DNA of 64,000 nucleotides from contig JAPDKA010000001.1 of NCBI GenBank assembly GCA_029258825.1, positions 35,548 to 99,547 of the forward strand. The letters run 5' to 3'. This document shows, piece after piece, positions 14,913 to 63,225 of this stretch. The position numbers and the translations under genes were made by a program. The notes below the pieces were generated by a model, which worked only from the letters and a program-made list of their open reading frames with translations, was not told the DNA's origin and did no database searches. The stretch comes from an archaeon. GTDB lineage: Archaea > Nanobdellota > Nanobdellia > Pacearchaeales > JAPDKA01. Numbering within the stretch: the stretch's first letter is position 1; every line of letters starts with the position of its first letter.

Positions 14913-15368
14913 ATGGGGATAAAAAAAACGTCGCTTAAGTTAGACGATTTAGATAAAGCAACAAAAAATGCATTGAAAAATTGTATAAAAGAATTAAAAA
15001 CAAAACCGTATGTAGTAGGTATTTATTTATTTGGTTCTCATGCAAAAAGAAAAACACATAAGTTGTCGGATGTTGACATTGCCATAGTGACTAAAGAAAT
15101 TAGCTATAAACAACACAACAGGATAAAGCTTTATTTGTACAGCTTTTCTACAGATAGATTAGATGTAAGTTGGTTTAATGAATTGCCTGCATATATTCAA
15201 AAGGAAGTGCTTTGTAATGGAAAACTTATATTTGTTAAAGACCGTTTTAAACTTGCTGAAATAACATCCAAACATATCAAAATAGCCATAGAATTTGAGA
15301 ATAGAGCGAAAAAAATTGATACCAGAATAATAGATAAATATAATAAATACCATAATAAATACAAATAA
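14913..15368 (+). CDS. minimal nucleotidyltransferase (MNT/MntA-like antitoxin)
   Basis: GIYLFGSHAKRKTHKLSDVDIAIV = GS-x9-13-DxD nucleotidyltransferase motif. Confidence 0.7.
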   Translation: MGIKKTSLKLDDLDKATKNALKNCIKELKTKPYVVGIYLFGSHAKRKTHKLSDVDIAIVTKEISYKQHNRIKLYLYSFSTDRLDVSWFNELPAYIQKEVLCNGKLIFVKDRFKLAEITSKHIKIAIEFENRAKKIDTRIIDKYNKYHNKYK

Positions 15369-15369
15369 A

Positions 15370-15798
15370 ATGAGAATTTCGAAAATCATTAAAGATATTG
15401 ACAGCTATTTGGAAGATCTCGCTGAGATATTGCCAAACGATGAAGAAGAACTAAAAAGAAATAAAGAAAAACGATATTCAACAGCATTTCTTGTAGAGTG
15501 CGTAATTAGTGGGTGCATAGACTTGGGATTTGAAATTGTAAGCATACTAGGTTTGGCATATCCAGCAACTTACAAACAGTTATTCGAGTTATTAGAAAAG
15601 AAAAAGATAATAACAAAAACTGTTGCCGATAAACTTAAAGAACTAGTCGGTTTAAGAAATATCATTGCACACCATTACACAAAAATTGATACTGAGCTAT
15701 TGTTTGAAAAAGCAAAATATATGATAGAATCAGGAATAATTGAAAAGTTTTTAGCACAAATAATAAAAAAATTAAAAGATAAAAACATTGGAATTTAA
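15370..15798 (+). CDS. HepT-like HEPN toxin (DUF86)
   Basis: LRNIIAHHY = R-x4-HxY HEPN/DUF86 motif; start 2 nt after the MNT stop (coupled pair). Confidence 0.7.
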   Translation: MRISKIIKDIDSYLEDLAEILPNDEEELKRNKEKRYSTAFLVECVISGCIDLGFEIVSILGLAYPATYKQLFELLEKKKIITKTVADKLKELVGLRNIIAHHYTKIDTELLFEKAKYMIESGIIEKFLAQIIKKLKDKNIGI

Positions 15799-19764: not shown

Positions 19765-20226
19765 TTAAATGTTGCTGAAATTTTTCATCTTTTGTTTTAT
19801 TATTTTCTTCAAATGTTTTATAAATTGTTTAGCATCTTCTAAAGCTATTTTTGCATCTTCTTTTTCAGCAGTATATTCAAGCCCATACATTGATTCATGT
19901 CTTTCTATTCTGTGTATATTAAGTAGATTTATAATATGTAAAGGTATTTGTTTTCTGTATTTTTCTTTTATGTAAATATAAGTTGCGTAATGGCTTTTCT
20001 CTTGTATCCCATCTAAGTAAAGCAATGCCCTAGCTGCATGAAACATAGCCATGTAAGATTGTATAATCACAAGATTGAAAAAGTTATATTTCGATTTAAA
20101 AAGTTCTTCTGCTTCTTTTATTCTATTTTTTGTTAAAGCCAATGAGGTTTTGGCTTTGTTTATGTCAGGCTTTATTTTTCGTAACAATCTTAACTTGAAA
20201 CAATCTTCAACAGTTTCGATTTTCAT
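19765..20226 (-). CDS. HEPN domain protein
   Basis: 153 aa helical protein; paralog of ORF 37982-38278; overlaps upstream MNT gene by 4 bp. Confidence 0.55.
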   Translation of the reverse strand: MKIETVEDCFKLRLLRKIKPDINKAKTSLALTKNRIKEAEELFKSKYNFFNLVIIQSYMAMFHAARALLYLDGIQEKSHYATYIYIKEKYRKQIPLHIINLLNIHRIERHESMYGLEYTAEKEDAKIALEDAKQFIKHLKKIIKQKMKNFSNI

Positions 20227-20789
20227 TTTACAATAGGTAGTTCTCCATATAAAGGAACACCATAAGCTAATACCTCGTTATAAAAAGCTGGATCGTGCTT
20301 TACTTTCTTTTTCCATTCAGTCCAGCTATAAATATGTAAACTAATAGTTCTGCCTAAGTGGTCCTCGAACTTGATTAGATTAATAGATTTTCTCTTTCCA
20401 ATTACCAATAAATCTATATCACTATCTAAAGTATCTTTACCTTGAGCAAGAGACCCAAATAATACTATAGAAGAGACATTAGGGATATTTTGAACTAAAA
20501 AATCTATCAATCCTGAATTAACAAGCTGATATATACTATAGGTGATCTTAATGTATTTAAAAACTAAATTAGAAAGATTTGGTTTTATATACCTCATTTT
20601 AGCTTTTCTTTCTTCCAAAAGAATTTTCTTTCTAACTAATACATCAACATATTTTTTTACAACAAAAGGACTCAATTTAAGAATTCTTGCAAGTTCTCTA
20701 ATATAAGTTTGTTTGTAGGGATTAAGAACAAAATATTCTATAATTTTAAATAAAGGGTGATGCGCTTCTGTCATGATATTTCTTTTCAT
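20223..20789 (-). CDS. wHTH-fused nucleotidyltransferase (MNT)
   Basis: N-terminal HTH (YIRELARILKLSPFVVKKYVDVL) plus IVLFGSLAQGKDTLDSDIDLLV GS...DxD motif; paralog of 37445-37978. Confidence 0.65.
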   Translation of the reverse strand: MKRNIMTEAHHPLFKIIEYFVLNPYKQTYIRELARILKLSPFVVKKYVDVLVRKKILLEERKAKMRYIKPNLSNLVFKYIKITYSIYQLVNSGLIDFLVQNIPNVSSIVLFGSLAQGKDTLDSDIDLLVIGKRKSINLIKFEDHLGRTISLHIYSWTEWKKKVKHDPAFYNEVLAYGVPLYGELPIVK

Positions 20790-24661: not shown

Positions 24662-26206
24662 TTACCCAAAATACTTCGCTTTTTCTTCTTCAAATTTGTC
24701 TTTTCCTGTAAAAAAAGAAAACCAAGGGTATGATGCAATAAATTTTTCTCGCAAATAGGAAGCAAGTTGGCGGATTTCCCATTGAGCATGTTTGTCGTAT
24801 CTCAAATTAAGAAAATGATAAAACTCGCGAAAATTCATCATGCAGTAAACACGTCTTTTGTGAGCATTAGTAAGCACATATGCTGCATTCCAATAACCGC
24901 GTTCTCGCTCGATTTTCCTGTACAACGCTGAAGACGATTCTATTATTTGAATATACCTTTTAGCCAGCTCTTCATTGTTTGCAATACTTTCAGGAATTAC
25001 AAACCCAAACTCTGGCATGTATTGTTGCGGTAATAATGTCATCATTCTATGTCTCTTTAGTTGCGCAAAACAAGAAGCACTCATCACAGCAGAAAATGAT
25101 ATTGATGCATTTTCGAATTCTCTAGGTAAATCGTGATATGATTGCATGTACTCAAGAATCGCTTTGATTAATTCTCGTTTTTGTGCTTCAGTTAAATTTT
25201 TTGCCAGTTCTAAACATATATTATAATCGCGCCGTGTATGATGGAACAAGAAAGCTGCAAAGATCGGTGCATCATCGTCTAGCTTCACATATTCAACTGT
25301 ACAAGTTCTGCTATTTTCAGCTTTAGCATGATTATTAACAGCAACCGATTCTGTTAGAGATTTGCATAATTCTTCTAACTTATTTTGTTTATAATATTCA
25401 TCCGCATTTGTATACTTAATAAGATGTTCGACATATGGAACTTTATAAACTACTTGTTTTAATTTTTCAGCTAAGGCTTTTGCTTCATTTAACTCATGCG
25501 AGGCAAGCTTCTGAATTATGTATTCTAATTCCCTGCCATTAACACTAAACTCAAGTTTTGTCAATGTAAAAAGTGGTAAAATAAAACGTGCGTCCTCTTT
25601 TGGTATACCTGCTCTAATAGCGTGATTATAAAAAGAGATTTGTTGATCACGCAAACCAGCAACATCAGCACAATCTTGTAATTCTGGTGGTATAGGCAAT
25701 TCTGCTGAGTTAACATCAACAAACCGTTGTGATTTTTCTGTATAGCTTGCTAAGCGATGTTTTTCGATTATTTCCATCAATAATCGTGTTCCTATAATGT
25801 CAACATTAAAGTACATATGTTCAACTATCGATTTGTGACCCATTCTAACAAGTTTTCGGTCAAGTTTAACCAATTCTTCTATATTATTCCTGTAATAATT
25901 CCGCAGTTGCTCGAAACTTTTCTTTTGATGACTAATACCAGCACATGCTGTAGCAATCACAGCAGGTGAAATCCTTGAAAGAAAACCTTCAAAACATGCA
26001 AGAGCTGCAGTTTTTCCTTGTTTATTTAAAGTATTATTTAAAGTATCAACAAATTGCGCGATTTCCTTGGAAAGTTGTTCAATATCAACATTGTAGCCAT
26101 AAAGATTTACATAAGGCAAATCTGCAGACTTGCCATCAAGCATAACTGAATAATCCTGCATAGAAAACTGCAACTCGAGAAATTTAAAAAGATTTTTATA
26201 TTGCAA
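24662..26206 (-). CDS. thyX: flavin-dependent thymidylate synthase ThyX-like, tandem Thy1 domains
   Basis: First half MGHKSIVEHMYFNVDIIGTRLLMEIIEKHRLASYTEKSQRFV matches the ThyX core (HxS..EH....RHR-x7-S-x-R). Second half has a degenerate repeat (FAQLKRHRMMTLLPQQYM) lacking the Ser/Arg. Confidence 0.55.
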   Translation of the reverse strand: MQYKNLFKFLELQFSMQDYSVMLDGKSADLPYVNLYGYNVDIEQLSKEIAQFVDTLNNTLNKQGKTAALACFEGFLSRISPAVIATACAGISHQKKSFEQLRNYYRNNIEELVKLDRKLVRMGHKSIVEHMYFNVDIIGTRLLMEIIEKHRLASYTEKSQRFVDVNSAELPIPPELQDCADVAGLRDQQISFYNHAIRAGIPKEDARFILPLFTLTKLEFSVNGRELEYIIQKLASHELNEAKALAEKLKQVVYKVPYVEHLIKYTNADEYYKQNKLEELCKSLTESVAVNNHAKAENSRTCTVEYVKLDDDAPIFAAFLFHHTRRDYNICLELAKNLTEAQKRELIKAILEYMQSYHDLPREFENASISFSAVMSASCFAQLKRHRMMTLLPQQYMPEFGFVIPESIANNEELAKRYIQIIESSSALYRKIERERGYWNAAYVLTNAHKRRVYCMMNFREFYHFLNLRYDKHAQWEIRQLASYLREKFIASYPWFSFFTGKDKFEEEKAKYFG

Positions 26207-37444: not shown

Positions 37445-37978
37445 ATGGAAAAAAAATTAACCATACTAAAACCATTTTTCGAGAATCCAAATAGGGAATT
37501 TCACATAAGAGAGCTCTCTAGGATGCTCAAAATAAACCATACTACAGTAAGGCAATATCTTAACAAATTCGTGAAAGAAAATTTACTCGAAATGAAGAAG
37601 GAAAGAAAATTTAAATTATTTAAAGCGAAGATTAATAGAAAATTCTTAAACTTAAAATTATTTTATAATTTAGAAAAAATCAGAAAGAGTGGTTTGATAG
37701 AAGATTTAGAAAGAAATTTTGATTTTCCACCAATTGTAATTTTTGGTTCTTATGCTCAAGCTATGGACAACAAAAACAGCGATATTGATATATGTATCAT
37801 TACTAACATTAAGAAAAAATTTAATACAACAAAGTATGAAAAAAAGCTTAATAGAAAATTAAGCTTACATATTTTTTCTGAAAAAGAGTGGGAAAAATTA
37901 AAGGTTACAAATCCAGAATTGGTAAACAGCATTTGTAATGGGATTGTTTTAGCAGGACAGTTAGAAGTAGTAAAATGA
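37445..37978 (+). CDS. wHTH-fused nucleotidyltransferase (MNT)
   Basis: HIRELSRMLKINHTTVRQYLNKFV HTH + IVIFGSYAQAMDNKNSDIDICII GS...DxD motif; paralog of 20223-20789. Confidence 0.65.
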   Translation: MEKKLTILKPFFENPNREFHIRELSRMLKINHTTVRQYLNKFVKENLLEMKKERKFKLFKAKINRKFLNLKLFYNLEKIRKSGLIEDLERNFDFPPIVIFGSYAQAMDNKNSDIDICIITNIKKKFNTTKYEKKLNRKLSLHIFSEKEWEKLKVTNPELVNSICNGIVLAGQLEVVK

Positions 37979-43407: not shown

Positions 43408-44460
43408 ATGGAAAACAAAATTTTGATTATAGGAAACAGAAAAGGTGGAAGGTTGGAGGGTTTAGTTAGGGAAGCATTAGATAGTGGTTTATTTAGAAGA
43501 GTATATGAAAAGGTGATGGGGATAAGGAGAGAGAAGAAACGGGAAGAAATAAAAAGCAAGCCAATTTCAAAATTAGAATCTGGACTGTATATTGGTGGAG
43601 ATTTTACTAAAGTTGGTCGTTTGAAATTGGATGATAGAGGTATTGTAAAGTATGAGAATGGTAGAATAGAGAAGGTTGTGGATGGGTTTGATTGGATTGA
43701 GCATTTCATTGAGAAGGATGGTGTGTTGTATATTGGTGGAGGTTTCACTAAGGTTGGTGGTTTGAAATTGAATGATAGAGGTATTGTAAAGTATGAGAAT
43801 GGTAGAATAGAGAAGGTTGTGGATGGGTTTAATGGTCGGATTAAGCATTTCATTGAGAAAGATGGTGTGTTGTATATAGGTGGAGGTTTTACTAAGGTTG
43901 ATGGTTTGAAATTGGATGGTTGTGGTATTGTAAAGTATGAGAATGGTAGAATAGAGAAGGTTGTGGATGGGTTTAATGATCGGATTATGCATTTCATTGA
44001 GAAAGATGGTGTGTTGTATATTGGTGGAGGTTTCACTAAGGTTGGTGGTTTGAAATTGGATGGTTGTGGTATTGTAAAGTATGAGAATGGTAGAATAGAG
44101 AAGGTTGTGGATGGGTTTAATGATTGGATTATGCATTTCATTGAGAAGGATGGTGTGTTGTATATAGGTGGAGGTTTTACTAAGGTTGATGGTTTGAAAT
44201 TGGATGGCAGAGGTATTGTAAAGTATGAGAATGGTAGAATAGAGAGGGTTGTGGATGGGTTTGATGATCGGATTAAGCATTTCATTGAGAAGGATGGTGT
44301 GTTGTATATTGGTGGAGGTTTTACTAAGGTTGATGGTTTGAAATTGGATGGCAGAGGTATTGTAAAGTATGAGAATGGTAGAATAGAGAGGGTTGTGGAT
44401 GGGTTTGATGATTGGATTAGGCATTTCATGGAAATTAAAAATAAAACAAAATTAGAATGA
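43408..44460 (+). CDS. repeat protein: conserved N-terminal module + six 47-aa Kelch-like (beta-propeller blade) repeats
   Basis: N-terminus MENKILIIGNRKGGRLEGLVREALDSGLFRRVYEKVMGIR shared with ORF 36371-37288. Six repeats LYIGGGFTKVxGLKLDxxGIVKYENGRIEKVVDGFxxxIxHFIEKDGV with a GG doublet and conserved Y/W/G spacing reminiscent of Kelch blades. Confidence 0.6.
   Translation: MENKILIIGNRKGGRLEGLVREALDSGLFRRVYEKVMGIRREKKREEIKSKPISKLESGLYIGGDFTKVGRLKLDDRGIVKYENGRIEKVVDGFDWIEHFIEKDGVLYIGGGFTKVGGLKLNDRGIVKYENGRIEKVVDGFNGRIKHFIEKDGVLYIGGGFTKVDGLKLDGCGIVKYENGRIEKVVDGFNDRIMHFIEKDGVLYIGGGFTKVGGLKLDGCGIVKYENGRIEKVVDGFNDWIMHFIEKDGVLYIGGGFTKVDGLKLDGRGIVKYENGRIERVVDGFDDRIKHFIEKDGVLYIGGGFTKVDGLKLDGRGIVKYENGRIERVVDGFDDWIRHFMEIKNKTKLE
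43585..44430 (+). repeat. 6 x 141-bp near-identical tandem repeats (coding)
   Basis: Period-141 repetition seen directly, e.g. ttgtatattggtggaggtttcactaaggttggtggtttgaaattg...gagaatggtagaatagagaaggttgtggatgggttt recurring at 43729, 43870, 44011, 44152 and 44293 with few substitutions; this also generates long spurious ORFs on the minus strand. Confidence 0.8.
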
Positions 44461-47872: not shown

Positions 47873-48088
47873 ATGCTAATCAAAGTTAAAGTAAAACCCA
47901 ATGCAAAGCAAGATAAAATAGAAATAAGTAAGGATTGTATTATGGTTTATACAAAACAACCGGCAGAAAAAGGTAGAGCAAACGCTGCTGTAGTAAAATT
48001 AATTGCAAAACATTTTGGCGTTAGTACTTCATACGTGAAGATTGTCAAAGGAAAAACGTCAAGAGAAAAACTAGTAGAAGTAAAATGA
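47873..48088 (+). CDS. DUF167 (YggU-like) protein
   Basis: IKVKVKPNAKQDKIEI...AEKGRANAAVVKLIAKHFGVSTSYVKIVKGKTSREKLVEV follows the DUF167 pattern (v.P.ak...i......pp.dGkAN.al..fla..l.v....v.i..G.tsr.K.v.i). Confidence 0.6.
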   Translation: MLIKVKVKPNAKQDKIEISKDCIMVYTKQPAEKGRANAAVVKLIAKHFGVSTSYVKIVKGKTSREKLVEVK

Positions 48089-48540
48089 AAGTAAAAATAA
48101 AAAAACAAAATAGACAAAAACAAATAAAATATGAAATTGCTGACGATGTCAAACAACTTGTTCTAGACATTATTGAAGTCTTAAAGCTGAAACACATAGA
48201 TACTAACAGACTAGCATGCGTTAGAAGCAGAAACAGCAAAACAAAAAATACTATAGCAAGATGTCACGGTACTGCAAAAATACTGCAGATAGCATTCAAC
48301 ATAAAACCGCATTACGTTATTGAAGTGATCAGCGAAAAATTTGACAAGCTCGATAAGAGCGAAAAGATTAAAGTATTAATTCATGAACTAATGCACATTC
48401 CGAAAAATTTTGGAGGGGGCTTCAGGCATCATGACTTTGTGAATGATAATCTCGTCGAGAAATTGTACGCAAGATACGTTAACGCTAAATACATGAAGGA
48501 AAAATATGGTTTAGTCGTCGAAAAAACGAAAGATATTTAA
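48085..48540 (+). CDS. putative zinc metallopeptidase (HExxH; SprT/Wss1-like)
   Basis: IHELMHIPKNFGGGFRHHDF contains HELMH (HExxH) plus downstream His; N-terminal basic region; 151 aa; 4-bp overlap with DUF167. Confidence 0.4.
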   Translation: MKVKIKKQNRQKQIKYEIADDVKQLVLDIIEVLKLKHIDTNRLACVRSRNSKTKNTIARCHGTAKILQIAFNIKPHYVIEVISEKFDKLDKSEKIKVLIHELMHIPKNFGGGFRHHDFVNDNLVEKLYARYVNAKYMKEKYGLVVEKTKDI

Positions 48541-50157: not shown

Positions 50158-50937
50158 ATGAAGGCTATATGGAAAGGTAGTATTGCATTTGGTCTTGTCA
50201 ACATTCCTGTAAAGTTGTATGCAGCAGTACAACCAAAACAGATAAGCTTCAAGTTGTTATGTGGCAAATGTCATACACCATTAAAGTATAAACGTTATTG
50301 TCCTAAATGCAAACGGGAAGTTGTATGGCAAGATGTTGTTAAAGGCATCAAAATAGGTAATAAATACATAGTATTAAGTAAAGAACAACTAAAAAAGTTA
50401 AGGCCGGAACAACTAAACGTGATAGAAATAGTCGGGTTCATCAAACCTGAAACTGTAGACAAGATTTACTTTCATAATAACTATTATATTGCACCAGACA
50501 CCAAATCAGCAAAAGCATACTTTTTACTGCAAGAGGTGTTAAGAACAACTGCAACTGCTGCAGTCGCGAGACTTGTGTTGCATGAAAAAGAATACACAGC
50601 ATTAATTACAGCATATAAACAAGGGTTGCTTTTAACGACACTCTATTATGATTATGAAGTGCGCGACATTAATGCAATTACAGAGATTGCTGAAGCTAAA
50701 AAAAAGACAAAAATAACAAAACAAGAGTTGCAGCTCGCGTTAATGCTTGTCGAAAAGTTAAGCAAAAAACAACTTAAGTTGGAGCAATTCAAAGATAGTT
50801 TTGTTGAAAAACTCAAGGCTATGCTTGCAGGCAAAATAGAAAAGCCTGCTCAGCCTCAACCAGAAAAACTAATTGAAGCTTTACAGCTAAGCATAAAACA
50901 AAGCGTCAAGCAAAGAAAAAGAAAAAAGGAAGTTTAA
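50158..50937 (+). CDS. ku: Ku protein (bacterial-type NHEJ end-binding)
   Basis: MKAIWKGSIAFGLVNIPVKLYAA N-terminus diagnostic of prokaryotic Ku; LKYKRYCPKCKREV zinc-ribbon-like insert as in mycobacterial Ku. Confidence 0.8.
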   Translation: MKAIWKGSIAFGLVNIPVKLYAAVQPKQISFKLLCGKCHTPLKYKRYCPKCKREVVWQDVVKGIKIGNKYIVLSKEQLKKLRPEQLNVIEIVGFIKPETVDKIYFHNNYYIAPDTKSAKAYFLLQEVLRTTATAAVARLVLHEKEYTALITAYKQGLLLTTLYYDYEVRDINAITEIAEAKKKTKITKQELQLALMLVEKLSKKQLKLEQFKDSFVEKLKAMLAGKIEKPAQPQPEKLIEALQLSIKQSVKQRKRKKEV

Positions 50938-51008: not shown

Positions 51009-51347
51009 ATGGAAGAACTTAAACAAATGGCAGAAGAATTTCTCGAAGCAGGTAAAGATAACTTAACTAAAAAAAGGTTTAATGCGGCAATATCAGATTT
51101 TTTCAAAGCTATTGCCATCTATTGTGATTATCTAATGTACTTAGAAGCAAGAATAATTCCAAAAAACCACACAGAAAGGTTTGCCTTACTCAAAAAGTAT
51201 TTTCCTGCTATATACGTTAAAGTCTCTTCTCTGTTTTCTCTGTATACAAAATCATACAATATGAAAGTGAATGAAAAAGATGTAAAAATAGTAAAGGATT
51301 ATGCTTATGAGATCAAAAAATTTATTGAAAATAAAGAAACTATTTAG
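51009..51347 (+). CDS. HEPN domain protein
   Basis: 112 aa all-helical; FFKAIAIYCDYLMYLEARIIPKNHTERF typical of HEPN of HEPN/MNT pairs; overlaps the downstream MNT gene. Confidence 0.5.
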   Translation: MEELKQMAEEFLEAGKDNLTKKRFNAAISDFFKAIAIYCDYLMYLEARIIPKNHTERFALLKKYFPAIYVKVSSLFSLYTKSYNMKVNEKDVKIVKDYAYEIKKFIENKETI

Positions 51348-51834
51348 AGATATATTGGAAGATAAAAACATAATAGACATAATTGTATTCGGTTCAGCTG
51401 TAAAAGGAAAAGCATTACCACAGGATATAGACATCGCTTTGATATATAAAAATAAAATAAATAAAAATAAGATTCCTAGAGAAAAAAACCTGCATATTAG
51501 TTTTATCTCAGTTGAAGAATTCTTTCGAGGATTACCATTAACAAATATCTTATTACGAGAGGGTATAAGTTTAAAGTATAAAAAACCTCTTGCAGAAATT
51601 TTTAGATTTAAGAATATGGTATTATTTGCTTATTCTCTTGAGGGATTAAGAAGTAGTAAAAAAGTAAAGATCGTAAATTGGTTGAAAAATAAAAAAACTG
51701 GAATAACTAAATATGGTGGAGTATGGGTTAGAAGAAGTGTATTTTTTGTGCCTTGCGTGTATGAAAAAATTTTTGCAGATTTTTTTATAAAAAACAAAGT
51801 AAAATTTAAAAAATGGTATTCTTTAATACATTAA
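51301..51834 (+). CDS. nucleotidyltransferase (MNT)
   Basis: IIDIIVFGSAVKGKALPQDIDIALIY GS...DxD motif. Confidence 0.6.
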   Translation: MLMRSKNLLKIKKLFRDILEDKNIIDIIVFGSAVKGKALPQDIDIALIYKNKINKNKIPREKNLHISFISVEEFFRGLPLTNILLREGISLKYKKPLAEIFRFKNMVLFAYSLEGLRSSKKVKIVNWLKNKKTGITKYGGVWVRRSVFFVPCVYEKIFADFFIKNKVKFKKWYSLIH

Positions 51835-51849
51835 TAAAAAATTGAAAAA

Positions 51850-52089
51850 ATGAAAAGAAAGGATAATATATTAATAATTTCCAAAATTAGACAGTTAATG
51901 AAAAAAAAGAAGATAAAAGCAAGTAACAAAGTTATTTCACAATTAGATAAATTCGTTAGAGATGTAGTAAACTACATATTAGATATCGCCAAGTATGAAA
52001 CATTAACTGCAGGAAAAAAAATCGTTAGTGTTACAGAATTAAAAAATGCTATACAAAAACTAAAAGAAGAAAAATCTTTAGAAATTTGA
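51850..52089 (+). CDS. hypothetical small protein
   Basis: 79 aa, K-rich helical; sits between the MNT and ligase genes; 4-bp overlap with ligase start. Confidence 0.3.
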   Translation: MKRKDNILIISKIRQLMKKKKIKASNKVISQLDKFVRDVVNYILDIAKYETLTAGKKIVSVTELKNAIQKLKEEKSLEI

Positions 52090-53108
52090 TAGAAATGAAA
52101 ACTTATGAAAAATGTTTTATGCTTGCTTTTCCAACAGATAGAACAATACTAAAGAGTTCTCAGTATATTTTTGAACCAAAATTGGACGGAACACGCGTGC
52201 ATATAATTAAAAAAGGTAAAAGTGTAAAACTAATTAACAGACGTGGTAAAGATATAAGCTACAGATATCCTGAATTGCAGCATGTATGGAAAAACATTAA
52301 AGCAAAAACTGCAATTCTTGATGCTGAACTTGTTGTATTAAATCAGCAGCAAAAACCTGACTTTAACTTATTGCAACAGAGGGAACAGCAAGATAAAAAA
52401 ATAAACATAGCTTTATTAGCGAAACAAATTCCTGCAGTGTTGTTTGTTTTTGACGTACTAATGCTGAATGATAAAATTACAGCAAGCAAGACATTGCTGG
52501 AACGAAAAAGTATACTTGATAGTGTGATTAAGCAAGACAAAAACATTGTTGTATGTCCTTATACATTCGACGGAATTAAACTTTGGAAGGCTGTAAAAAA
52601 ATTGAAGTTAGAAGGAGTAATGGCAAAACGCATTGATAGTGTTTATGAGTGCTGCAGAAGCAAATCATGGCTAAAGATAAAAAACATAAAAACAATCGAT
52701 GCTATCGTAATCGGTTATACAATTAAACAAAGACAAAATGCAAGCAAATCAAAACGTTGCATTAGTGCATTATTGCTAGCGCTATATGAAAAACCGAAAA
52801 CAAAAAAGCAAGAAAAAATAAAGCAACGAAAACTTGTTTATATAGGCAGGGTAGGAACAGGTTTCAGTGCAGAACAACTTGAGACAATTAAAGCTATACT
52901 TGATAAACATAAATCTAAACAAATGCCAGCATTGAAAAATAAACAAATGTTAAACAAAATAAAAAGCAATACAGTAATTGTATGGTTAAAGCCGGAAGTA
53001 ATTGCAGAGATCAAATATCTTGAATTTACAAAACAAAAAGAACTAAGAGCAAGTAGTTTTGTTAGACTCAGATTTGATAAACCACCAGAAGAATGTGTTA
53101 TGGAATAA
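52086..53108 (+). CDS. ligD: ATP-dependent DNA ligase (LigD ligase-domain-like)
   Basis: Motif I FEPKLDGTR (KxDG adenylation lysine), motif IV EGVMAK, OB-fold C-terminus; 340 aa minimal ligase, same strand as ku. Confidence 0.75.
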   Translation: MIEMKTYEKCFMLAFPTDRTILKSSQYIFEPKLDGTRVHIIKKGKSVKLINRRGKDISYRYPELQHVWKNIKAKTAILDAELVVLNQQQKPDFNLLQQREQQDKKINIALLAKQIPAVLFVFDVLMLNDKITASKTLLERKSILDSVIKQDKNIVVCPYTFDGIKLWKAVKKLKLEGVMAKRIDSVYECCRSKSWLKIKNIKTIDAIVIGYTIKQRQNASKSKRCISALLLALYEKPKTKKQEKIKQRKLVYIGRVGTGFSAEQLETIKAILDKHKSKQMPALKNKQMLNKIKSNTVIVWLKPEVIAEIKYLEFTKQKELRASSFVRLRFDKPPEECVME

Positions 53109-62135: not shown

Positions 62136-62414
62136 TTAGCTATTTTTCTTCACAATGTTTACGGCTTTCTTACCTTTTTCACCGTCAACTATATCGAACT
62201 CAACAATGTCGCCTTCAACAAGAAAGCCACGCCTGATGCCTGTTTTATGGAAAAACACATCTGGCTGGCCTTCAACTGCTATAAAGCCATAACGCTTTTT
62301 TGGATTGTACCACTTGACCTTACCAATGCATCTTGCTTTTTTATTTTCCTCTATTTTCGGTTTTTTTTGTATTTTTGATTTTTTATCTTGCACGATTTTC
62401 TTTTTCTCTTTCAT
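62136..62414 (-). CDS. csp: cold-shock domain protein (CspA family) with K-rich N-terminal extension
   Basis: GKVKWYNPKKRYGFIAVEGQPDVFFHKTGI...EGDIVEFDIVDGEKGKKAVNIV: RNP1-like KRYGFI and RNP2-like VFFH motifs of the CSD. Confidence 0.7.
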   Translation of the reverse strand: MKEKKKIVQDKKSKIQKKPKIEENKKARCIGKVKWYNPKKRYGFIAVEGQPDVFFHKTGIRRGFLVEGDIVEFDIVDGEKGKKAVNIVKKNS

Positions 62415-62619
62415 TTTAACTAAAAAGTAACTTTACTTCAATTTGCTTTGCGCTAAGAACAGTAAGAAATAAGCAAAAATTCAGCTTATCCTTACTGTCT
62501 TGTTAATTAAATAAAATTACATTTAAATATGTTTGCATTATAGCATCAAAAACAATAAACACTGTAACACTAGAGTAACACCAAAAAGTTTATTAAGGCT
62601 AAAATCGTGTTAAGAATAA

Positions 62620-62710
62620 GGCAAGCGGGCAAACTAGGGGTTACAGTTATGCACTTCGGTGCATAGCAATGTCTTCCCTTGTGGAAGACACCCTAGGCCT
62701 ATAGCTTGCC
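62620..62710 (+). ncRNA. candidate structured RNA (GC-rich, nested stems, UUCG tetraloop hairpin); strand uncertain
   Basis: Outer stem GGCAAGC(62620-26)/GCUUGCC(62704-10), inner stem CUAGGG/CCCUAG, hairpin UAUGCAC-UUCG-GUGCAUA (62648-65), hairpin GUCUUCC-CUUGU-GGAAGAC (62671-89). Lies 30 nt upstream of the flavin-reductase-like CDS and ~200 nt upstream of csp on the other strand. Confidence 0.35.
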
Positions 62711-62739
62711 ATTGCTTTAAATTTCTTATTTTGATTAAA

Positions 62740-63225
62740 ATGTCTGAAATAACTGGGCCAAGGCAAGTAGTCATAATTACTTGTCGAAACAAAAATAAAA
62801 AAATAGATAATAGCATTACAGTAGCTTGGCATACACAGTTAAGCTTTAAACCATTTTTGTATGGAATTGCAATAGGAAAAACAAGATACAGTTGTGGCAT
62901 TATTAAAGCAAGCAAGTGTTTTTGCGTCAATTTTATTTCTGCTAAGCTTAAGCAACTTGCAATAGATATAGGCACTATTTCTGGAAGAAGCATTAATAAA
63001 GACAAAATATTAGCTAAACATAATGTGAAAAAAATTGAATGTAAATACATTGATTGTTTTAGGCTAGATAAAGCAATAGCATGGCTTGAGTGTGAAGTAA
63101 TTAAGCAAATCGATGCTGGTGACCATATACTATTTATTGGTAAAGTAGTTCACATGCAACAAAGTCAAGCAAGTAAAGCAAAAAGATTGATGCACATAAC
63201 TGGAGATTTGTTCAAAGAGTGTTAA
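62740..63225 (+). CDS. flavin reductase-like FMN-binding split-barrel protein
   Basis: From internal Met MSEITGPRQVVIITCRNKNK...ITVAWHTQLSFKPFLYGIAIGK...FCVNFIS...DHILFIGKVVHM follows the Flavin_Reduct-domain pattern. The 27 codons upstream in the track ORF overlap the structured RNA and are probably not coding. Confidence 0.5.
   Translation: MSEITGPRQVVIITCRNKNKKIDNSITVAWHTQLSFKPFLYGIAIGKTRYSCGIIKASKCFCVNFISAKLKQLAIDIGTISGRSINKDKILAKHNVKKIECKYIDCFRLDKAIAWLECEVIKQIDAGDHILFIGKVVHMQQSQASKAKRLMHITGDLFKEC

Follow-up and report, generated by a model that had tools for sequence, protein, structure and literature searches.

What is the GC-rich stretch of about 90 nucleotides that lies between a cold-shock protein gene (csp) and a gene for a flavin-reductase-like protein in the AT-rich archaeal DNA analyzed here (a contiguous stretch of 64,000 nucleotides, hereafter the window)? 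A preliminary description had recognized in it a structured RNA and offered a cis-regulatory element, a thermosensor or a small RNA as its possible nature. These readings raise the questions of which strand encodes the RNA, whether it acts on the adjacent genes, and what its fold is for. As we show below, the element is a real, conserved, structured RNA of the plus strand. The base of its fold has the form of the motif known as bulge-helix-bulge (BHB), which points to the possibility that a 70-nt RNA is excised from it by the tRNA-splicing endonuclease EndA and closed into a circle.

The compositional contrast reported at the outset is borne out by the GC content, which is 53% in the element as against 32.4% in the window. 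It is the sole intergenic GC-rich island of the 64 kb other than the tRNAs; the remaining GC-rich islands were assigned to ORFs by matching positions against the list of ORFs. In RNAfold predictions the 91-nt plus-strand domain at positions 62620-62710 adopts the same structure as both the minimum-energy and the centroid fold, with an energy of -49.4 kcal/mol, while its dinucleotide shuffles reach -28.2 +/- 3.2 kcal/mol (z = -6.7), none of the 200 being as stable. All four stems originally proposed, namely the outer stem of 7 bp, the inner stem of 6 bp and the two hairpins, are present in this fold on the plus strand, within the coordinates first stated. What the preliminary description overlooked is a 4-bp helix, GGGC/GCCU, and hence the BHB motif. 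The parts of the domain, with their state in L002 (the corresponding locus of a closely related lineage), are as follows:

62620..62710, plus strand: complete precursor domain, comprising the BHB stem and a three-way junction with two hairpins (RNAfold, covariance model)
62620-62626 with 62704-62710, plus strand: helix h, 7 bp, GGCAAGC/GCUUGCC (fold; its terminal G-C is G.U in L002)
62627-62630 with 62697-62700, plus strand: central helix H, 4 bp, GGGC/GCCU (pair probabilities 0.96-0.99; a G.U becomes G-C in L002)
62631-62633, plus strand: bulge 1, AAA, with exactly 3 nt unpaired (predicted 5' cut after A62632)
62701-62703, plus strand: bulge 2, AUA (fold; kept in L002; predicted 3' cut after U62702)
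62634-62639 with 62691-62696, plus strand: helix h', 6 bp, CUAGGG/CCCUAG (fold)
62640-62645, plus strand: three-way-junction strand GUUACA (left unpaired by the minimum-energy fold; invariant across all copies)
62646-62667, plus strand: hairpin 1, 9 bp (core UAUGCAC/GUGCAUA, 62648-62665), with a very stable cUUCGg tetraloop (fold)
62671-62689, plus strand: hairpin 2, GUCUUCC-CUUGU-GGAAGAC (fold; the only change in L002 is a 1-nt loop insertion)

Several features favor the plus strand as the one that is expressed. The reverse strand folds to only -42.2 kcal/mol and loses the 4-bp helix, and our covariance model R1 scores the element at 116.5 bits on the plus strand as against 18 bits on the minus strand. 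The pair G62627-U62700 in the window and the pair G1-U in L002 become A.C mismatches on the other strand. Likewise, the cUUCGg loop reads CGAA on the opposite strand, which again supports the plus strand. The TATA box described below, at the modal spacing of -29 from A62618, favors this strand too.

The element is known from two close lineages only, the window species and L002, which together provide three distinct sequences because the window species has two alleles (A49G). The same locus of the window species is present in several independent assemblies (L001, L028/L110, L109 and L111); L109 and L111, from the flavin-reductase cluster, and the contig L028 carry the same RNA with A49G as the sole polymorphism. 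The flavin reductase of L002 is 84% identical to that of the window. At the nucleotide level the two loci are 94.6% identical in the RNA element, 81.6% in the upstream intergenic DNA, 84.6% in the flavin-reductase coding sequence and 74% in the spacer between the RNA and the ATG. All five of the differences within the RNA are structure-neutral: two affect junction bases, one is a loop insertion, one converts a G.U of helix H to G-C and one converts the terminal G-C to G.U. L002 preserves both bulges, the 3-4-3 spacing and helix H; hairpins 1 and 2 show no change in their stems, which suggests constraint on the enclosed payload, beyond that on the BHB stem alone. The preliminary description had made conservation of the pairing in related genomes one of its touchstones. 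On this count the pairs are indeed kept in L002, but the three sequences, representing two lineages, include no pair changed on both sides and thus show G-C/G.U toggles rather than true covariation.

Outside these lineages, no counterpart of the element was found near 84 homologous flavin-reductase genes (L003/L004, L005, L025, L026 and 80 loci from GTDB, the last amounting to 1.17 Mb searched with R1). The flavin reductases of these element-less relatives are 34-58% identical, and an R1 match in L084 (E = 3.6) was rejected as it lies within an ORF. In L003 and L005 the flavin-reductase gene is leaderless, with its TATA box at about -29 to -21. The combination of a leaderless gene and the absence of the element in these relatives indicates that the element is a lineage-specific insertion, not a conserved leader of the gene family. 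Three exact sub-patterns of the element yielded no match in IMG/VR, and the 16 matches there to the pattern GGTTACAGT-N7-TTCG-N7-GC are all chance occurrences without stem complementarity. One pattern, with GCRATG added, recovered only 3 chance matches in the JGI metagenomes, and a blastn search of phages and plasmids with the element recovered none. With filters off, only one copy was present in the 64-kb window, and likewise in L028, the contig that overlaps it. Two further pairings were dropped as they are absent from L002: one between 62705-15 and 62757-67 in the coding sequence, and one with an inverted partial copy at 62562-74. This partial copy (ACTGTAACACTAG, 62562-62574), situated just 5' of the TATA box of the RNA, is an inverted near-copy of 62634-62647 (CTAGGGGTTACAGT); given its lack of conservation in L002, it is probably a chance resemblance or a decaying remnant.

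The Rfam scan recommended in the preliminary description matched no family to the element. This was the case at the gathering threshold on the whole window and also at E <= 10 on 62400-62900, where the two matches in the 501 nt both fall outside the element. One of these two, to the snoJ26 C/D snoRNA family (E 5.6, 62437-62511, minus strand), is due to chance. The element had been said to be neither a tRNA nor a C/D RNA, and both statements hold: the Rfam tRNA model and ARAGORN find seven other tRNAs in the window and not the element, and the 91 nt contain no UGAUGA and no CUGA. A permuted or intron-bearing tRNA was rejected as well, with ARAGORN returning only low-threshold hits in mitochondrial mode when run on the doubled 70-nt circle proposed below, the precursor and the ligated flanks. 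An H/ACA sRNA was discarded in that hairpins 1 and 2 are perfectly helical and lack a pseudouridylation pocket. The lengths of the junction strands (8, 5, 1) are similar to those of a hammerhead, but the CUGAUGA and GAAA core of that ribozyme is missing.

The strict form of the archaeal splicing motif, hBHBh', is defined by two 3-nt bulges around a 4-bp helix, and its cut positions have been described (PMC4090602). Since the GGGC/GCCU helix is 4 bp long and has 3 unpaired nucleotides on each strand, the base of the present fold is a BHB motif, reading 7 bp, 3-nt bulge, 4 bp, 3-nt bulge and 6 bp in the strict hBHBh' arrangement. The two bulges, on opposite strands and 4 bp apart, are the sole irregularities of a 17-bp outer stem. 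A motif parser finds the handedness to be canonical and not the mirror form, with each bulge lying 3' of its own H strand. Helices h and h' consist of standard pairs throughout in all three distinct sequences. In the tRNA version of the motif, anticodon positions 34 and 35 lie within the central helix and the cut falls at 37/38 (PMC4090602); by analogy, cleavage after the second bulge nucleotide would here occur after A62632 and U62702.

How often such a geometry arises by chance depends on how strictly it is defined. A strict BHB of either handedness appeared in the minimum-energy fold of none of 5000 dinucleotide shuffles. The loose topology, with G.U pairs allowed, is found 9 times in the real window and about 3 times per shuffled window, so geometry by itself is weak evidence. 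In a scored scan of 1.27 Mb, made up of the window and 83 related loci and consisting mostly of DPANN DNA, the element is the only strict GC-rich BHB that is non-coding and situated in an AT-rich genome. Other high-scoring candidates (L097, L106, L100/L104 and L039) belong to GC-rich genomes, to ORFs or to coding repeats, and were set aside. By its geometry, the element can be considered a putative archaeal hBHBh' substrate that might be cleaved at both bulges.

The transcriptional context of the element bears on what such cleavage would release. The relevant features are:

62581..62596, plus strand: archaeal promoter, a BRE-like CCAAAAAG rich in purines and, after it, the TATA box TTTATTAA (62589-62596), recognized by its spacing and kept in L002
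62618, plus strand: predicted transcription start A62618, 2 nt before the stem (pyrimidine-purine step T62617-A62618 and TATA spacing)
62716..62723, strand not assigned: TATA-like TTTAAATT in the spacer that separates RNA and ATG; with its start at -24 it is some 5 nt nearer to the ATG at 62740 than would suit that gene
62740..63225, plus strand: flavin-reductase coding sequence (PF01613), probably co-transcribed 3' of the element

From the first base of the 8-mer TTTATTAA it is 29 nt to A62618 and 31 nt to G62620; L002 has retained the box as well as the spacing. A TATA 8-mer is found at -31 to -27 from the ATG in 20 of the 38 genes scanned, with -29/-30 being the commonest position; about half of these genes have a TTTAWAWA-like box 29-30 nt before the ATG. 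This pattern implies that mRNAs without leaders are usual here. TTTAAATT is the only 8-mer scoring >= 7 that starts at -24, as against the -29/-30 mode. This box may represent a relic or else a promoter of the minus strand, and in L003 and L005 the equivalent ATG-adjacent box is positioned to serve the divergent gene. Deleting 120 nt, that is the RNA plus the spacer, would put TTTATTAA at the normal leaderless distance from the ATG. The flavin-reductase ORF lacks a correctly spaced promoter of its own and no terminator-like site of the bacterial type follows the element, on which grounds co-transcription of the two appears slightly more likely than a stand-alone gene for the RNA. The T-runs that follow the element (T3, T3 and T4) are similar to those after some tRNA genes here, which makes the co-transcription uncertain. 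The promoter geometry fits the placement of the element at the 5' end of the flavin-reductase transcript, in line with the earlier proposal that it belongs to the leader of this gene.

The distances first given for the element also stand, with 29 nt (for a claimed 30) to the ATG at 62740 and 205 nt (for about 200) to the csp start at 62414 on the other strand. So does the view that the first 27 codons of ORF 62659-63225 are non-coding: 31 homologues all begin at the methionine encoded at 62740, in an MSxIT motif, leaving the upstream GTG extension as non-coding. The L002 spacer that runs from the RNA to the ATG (positions 291-338 of that locus) contains a duplicated GCTTTAAAC box, GCTTTAAACTGAATGCTTTTAAAC. 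One GCTTTAAAC copy, at about -39 from the ATG, could be an independent promoter, and flavin-reductase transcription may thus differ between the window lineage and L002.

The gene content of the window is that of a DPANN archaeon. The best named relatives of the flavin reductase are from metagenome-assembled genomes (MAGs) of Pacearchaeota, Woesearchaeota, Aenigmatarchaeota and Nanoarchaeota, the best match among the GTDB representatives, which do not include the host, being 57% identical and from a Candidatus Pacearchaeota MAG. The window proteins include Cdc48, AglB/STT3, Kae1, a RadA-like recombinase, SepF and ribosomal protein L11, and the seven tRNAs are archaeal-looking. The csp gene (62136-62414, minus strand) encodes a protein with a Lys-rich N-terminal extension of about 30 aa, whose closest relatives besides itself among 5.8 billion proteins are 62% identical Csp proteins of 63 aa. 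The gene situated upstream of the flavin reductase in L003 and L005 encodes a different protein of 94-95 aa, and both csp and the RNA look like lineage-specific arrivals at this locus. On the minus strand csp is preceded, within 62415-62535, by a TATA region that is strongly conserved (62516-62535 in reverse complement) and by an approximately 85-nt leader. A long hairpin in this leader (62459-62499) folds with z-scores of -3.1 (window) and -4.4 (L002). In L002 two substitutions, A-to-G on the minus strand, create G.U pairs. A cold-shock leader or thermosensor is more plausibly sought in this hairpin than in the element at 62620-62710.

Elsewhere in the window, ORF 43408-44460 (plus strand) harbors a tandem array (43586-44429) of 5.9 copies of a 144-nt unit, equivalent to 48 aa, with 94% identity, and its 350-aa product has no Pfam match. 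A Ku-domain protein (50158-50937, plus strand) is encoded near an ATP-dependent DNA ligase (52086-53108, plus strand), constituting a bacterial-type end-joining pair in a DPANN archaeon. Two pairs of nucleotidyltransferase and HEPN (HepT-like) genes of the toxin-antitoxin type (14913-15798, plus strand; 19765-20789, minus strand) are accompanied by lone Pol-beta-type nucleotidyltransferases at 37445-37978 and 51301-51834. A ThyX protein of 514 aa (24662-26206, minus strand) has two matched Thy1 stretches, suggesting a duplicated or fused thymidylate synthase, and a protein with a 'putative phage metallopeptidase' domain is encoded at 48085-48540 (plus strand).

On the basis of the fold, its BHB geometry and the promoter spacing, we propose, with a probability of roughly 0.55, that EndA excises a 70-nt RNA from the element and that an RNA ligase circularizes it:

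62633..62702, plus strand: predicted excised 70-nt RNA (excision and ligation both proposed)

Transcription would begin about 2 nt before the stem, from the TATA box at 62589-96, and the first 91 nt would fold as an autonomous domain with an hBHBh' base. EndA would then cleave after A62632 and U62702, and a ligase of the RtcB type would join the ends of 62633-62702 into a 70-nt circular RNA with three hairpins. Circular folding of this predicted molecule gives -27.3 kcal/mol; in its third hairpin (CCCUAG/CUAGGG) the 7-nt loop GCCUAU/A would span the ligation junction, marked here by the slash. The predicted back-splice junction is CCCTAGGCCTAT joined to ACTAGGGGTTAC (also written as GACACCCTAGGCCTAT joined to ACTAGGGGTTACAGT). 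The same ligase would join the flanks into a 21-nt hairpin, GGCAAGC-GGGCAAA-GCUUGCC, with the predicted exon junction GGCAAGCGGGCAA joined to AGCTTGCCATTGC (also written as AAGGCAAGCGGGCAA joined to AGCTTGCCATTGCTTT). This joined flank might be a dead-end product or, as we slightly favor, might form the 5' end of the flavin-reductase mRNA's 50-nt leader. In the latter case the element would be a BHB intron located right at the 5' terminus of a gene that is otherwise of the leaderless type.

Production of circular RNAs from BHB sites by EndA followed by ligation, by RtcB or another RNA ligase, has been documented (PMC12558985). No gene for EndA or RtcB is present within the 64-kb window. To our knowledge EndA is universal in archaea, and we know of very few of its substrates beyond tRNA and rRNA, namely the intron of the cbf5 mRNA, the 5' UTR intron of HVO_1309 and the permuted SRP RNA of Thermoproteus. 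Given the invariance of hairpins 1 and 2, we infer that the excised RNA would have a role of its own, for instance as a stable protein-binding or scaffold RNA, rather than being junk. A bolder version, which we put forward tentatively and hold to be rather improbable, is that of a dedicated circular-RNA gene, a promoter-driven cassette whose transcript would be made only for cutting by EndA and ligation into a functional 70-nt circle with three hairpins. It would be, as far as we know, the first stand-alone small circular RNA made through a BHB in a DPANN archaeon and beyond the tRNA, rRNA and SRP families.

If the proposed excision is correct, a further BHB substrate, unrelated in sequence to those known and from an ultrasmall DPANN archaeon, would show that BHB excision is more widely used. 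Such excision could yield stable small circular RNAs, and it could let the 5' ends of leaderless genes tolerate intron-like insertions. The proposal is an unusually clean one and directly testable; its predicted cut sites, junctions and fragment sizes are exact.

The reading that competes best, though with a clearly lower probability, is that of a linear structured RNA which is never cut by EndA and in which the 3-4-3 geometry is fortuitous. It could be a small RNA in its own right, some 95-115 nt long, or a stem-loop at the 5' terminus that shields the flavin-reductase mRNA from decay dependent on the 5' end. A transcription start next to the base of a stable stem is the arrangement of known 5' stabilizers of mRNA, and here the predicted start lies at most 2 nt from the base of a very stable stem. 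The structural autonomy of the domain would suit a linear RNA equally well, the bulge spacing is without specific support from covariation, and chance does produce loose BHB-like topologies. Against this, the strict motif is absent from all of the shuffles, and the only irregularities of the stem are two bulges of precisely 3 nt with the correct strands, separation and handedness. Moreover, L002 has retained both bulges together with helix H, and for a stabilizer a three-way junction bearing two invariant hairpins would be superfluous. Were the motif nonetheless fortuitous, the element would be an orphan, lineage-restricted structured RNA.

Far less probable is a cis-regulatory leader, be it a riboswitch or an RNA thermometer, for the flavin-reductase gene, or for csp from the other strand. 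The location of the element just 5' of the flavin-reductase ATG, probably on the same transcript, its three-way-junction architecture and the adjoining cold-shock gene would all be in keeping with such a function. The thermosensor suggested in the preliminary description finds no support in the minimum-energy fold, which is the same from 4 to 80 °C. A riboswitch or other cis-regulator fares no better: the helices are perfect and offer no alternative pairing with the start region. Excision of the 70 nt takes the predicted accessibility of that region, expressed as the probability that bases around the AUG are unpaired, from 0.463 to 0.462 and leaves the fold of the AUG region unaffected. In addition, L003, L005, L025, L026 and the 80 GTDB loci have nothing corresponding to the element in the vicinity of their homologous gene, and even the permissive Rfam search yielded no match to it. 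As for csp, the minus strand folds worse and without the 4-bp helix, and csp has its own conserved TATA box and leader hairpin.

An element acting as DNA (a miniature inverted-repeat transposable element or nested palindromic operators, for example for the PadR encoded 1 kb away), with the RNA fold as a by-product, is also very improbable: its terminal inverted repeats GGCAAGC...GCTTGCC and its position between csp and the flavin-reductase gene in this lineage only, as if inserted, are countered by the single copy in the window and L028 with none in 1.17 Mb of related loci, by substitutions that keep the RNA pairs through G.U and are thus valid on one strand only, by the cUUCGg tetraloop and a promoter placed where the fold begins, which point to a transcribed RNA, and by flanks in which no target-site duplication was seen on reading them.

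We return, then, to the BHB substrate as the preferred reading, which can be set beside four known systems. Sulfolobus solfataricus has circular non-coding RNAs of about 68-70 nt with unknown function (Danan et al. 2012, PMC3326292). The present element resembles them in being a small intergenic archaeal RNA of similar length, its circularity being a prediction. Those circles were found by sequencing, with no bulge motif mentioned in PMC3326292, whereas the element is predicted from its motif.

The closest precedent is the BHB intron in the 5' UTR of HVO_1309 from Haloferax volcanii, which is 46 nt long, for which a circular RNA was found and which is cut by recombinant EndA in vitro (Schwarz et al. 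2020, PMC7714728). Both are BHBs that belong to neither tRNA nor rRNA and lie 5' of a protein-coding ORF, and they are of a similar size class (46 nt there and a predicted 70 nt here). However, the HVO_1309 intron is situated within a UTR of 192 nt whose whole transcribed sequence is conserved across haloarchaea, whereas such conservation of leader and gene is not found for the element, which is confined to the window lineage and L002, two close DPANN lineages. Furthermore, unlike the HVO_1309 intron, the element would lie at the very 5' end of its transcript in a genome with mostly leaderless genes, has a highly structured payload of three hairpins and no sequence similarity to that intron, and its excision is predicted.

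In archaeal 16S and 23S pre-rRNAs and in the BHB-flanked permuted SRP RNA of Thermoproteus (PMC4731332, PMC12918454), as in the element, the precursor ends form a long stem with a BHB; EndA there releases the enclosed RNA, which is then circularized, as is proposed for the element. In those cases the gene exists to deliver the enclosed RNA. Their payloads are universal RNAs of 300-3000 nt, while that of the element would be 70 nt and of no known family.

Finally, an archaeal tRNA-Trp intron of 65 nt encodes a C/D box sRNA (PMC4090602). The payload of the element, unlike this intron, is without C/D boxes. Unlike those of tRNA introns in general, its flanks are not those of a tRNA, as the ligated 'exons' would form a 7-bp hairpin with a GGGCAAA loop that lacks the U33 of an anticodon loop. 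The two nevertheless share the canonical hBHBh' and an excised RNA of about 65-70 nt, predicted in the case of the element, and the tRNA-Trp intron provides a precedent for an intron RNA that can function after its excision.
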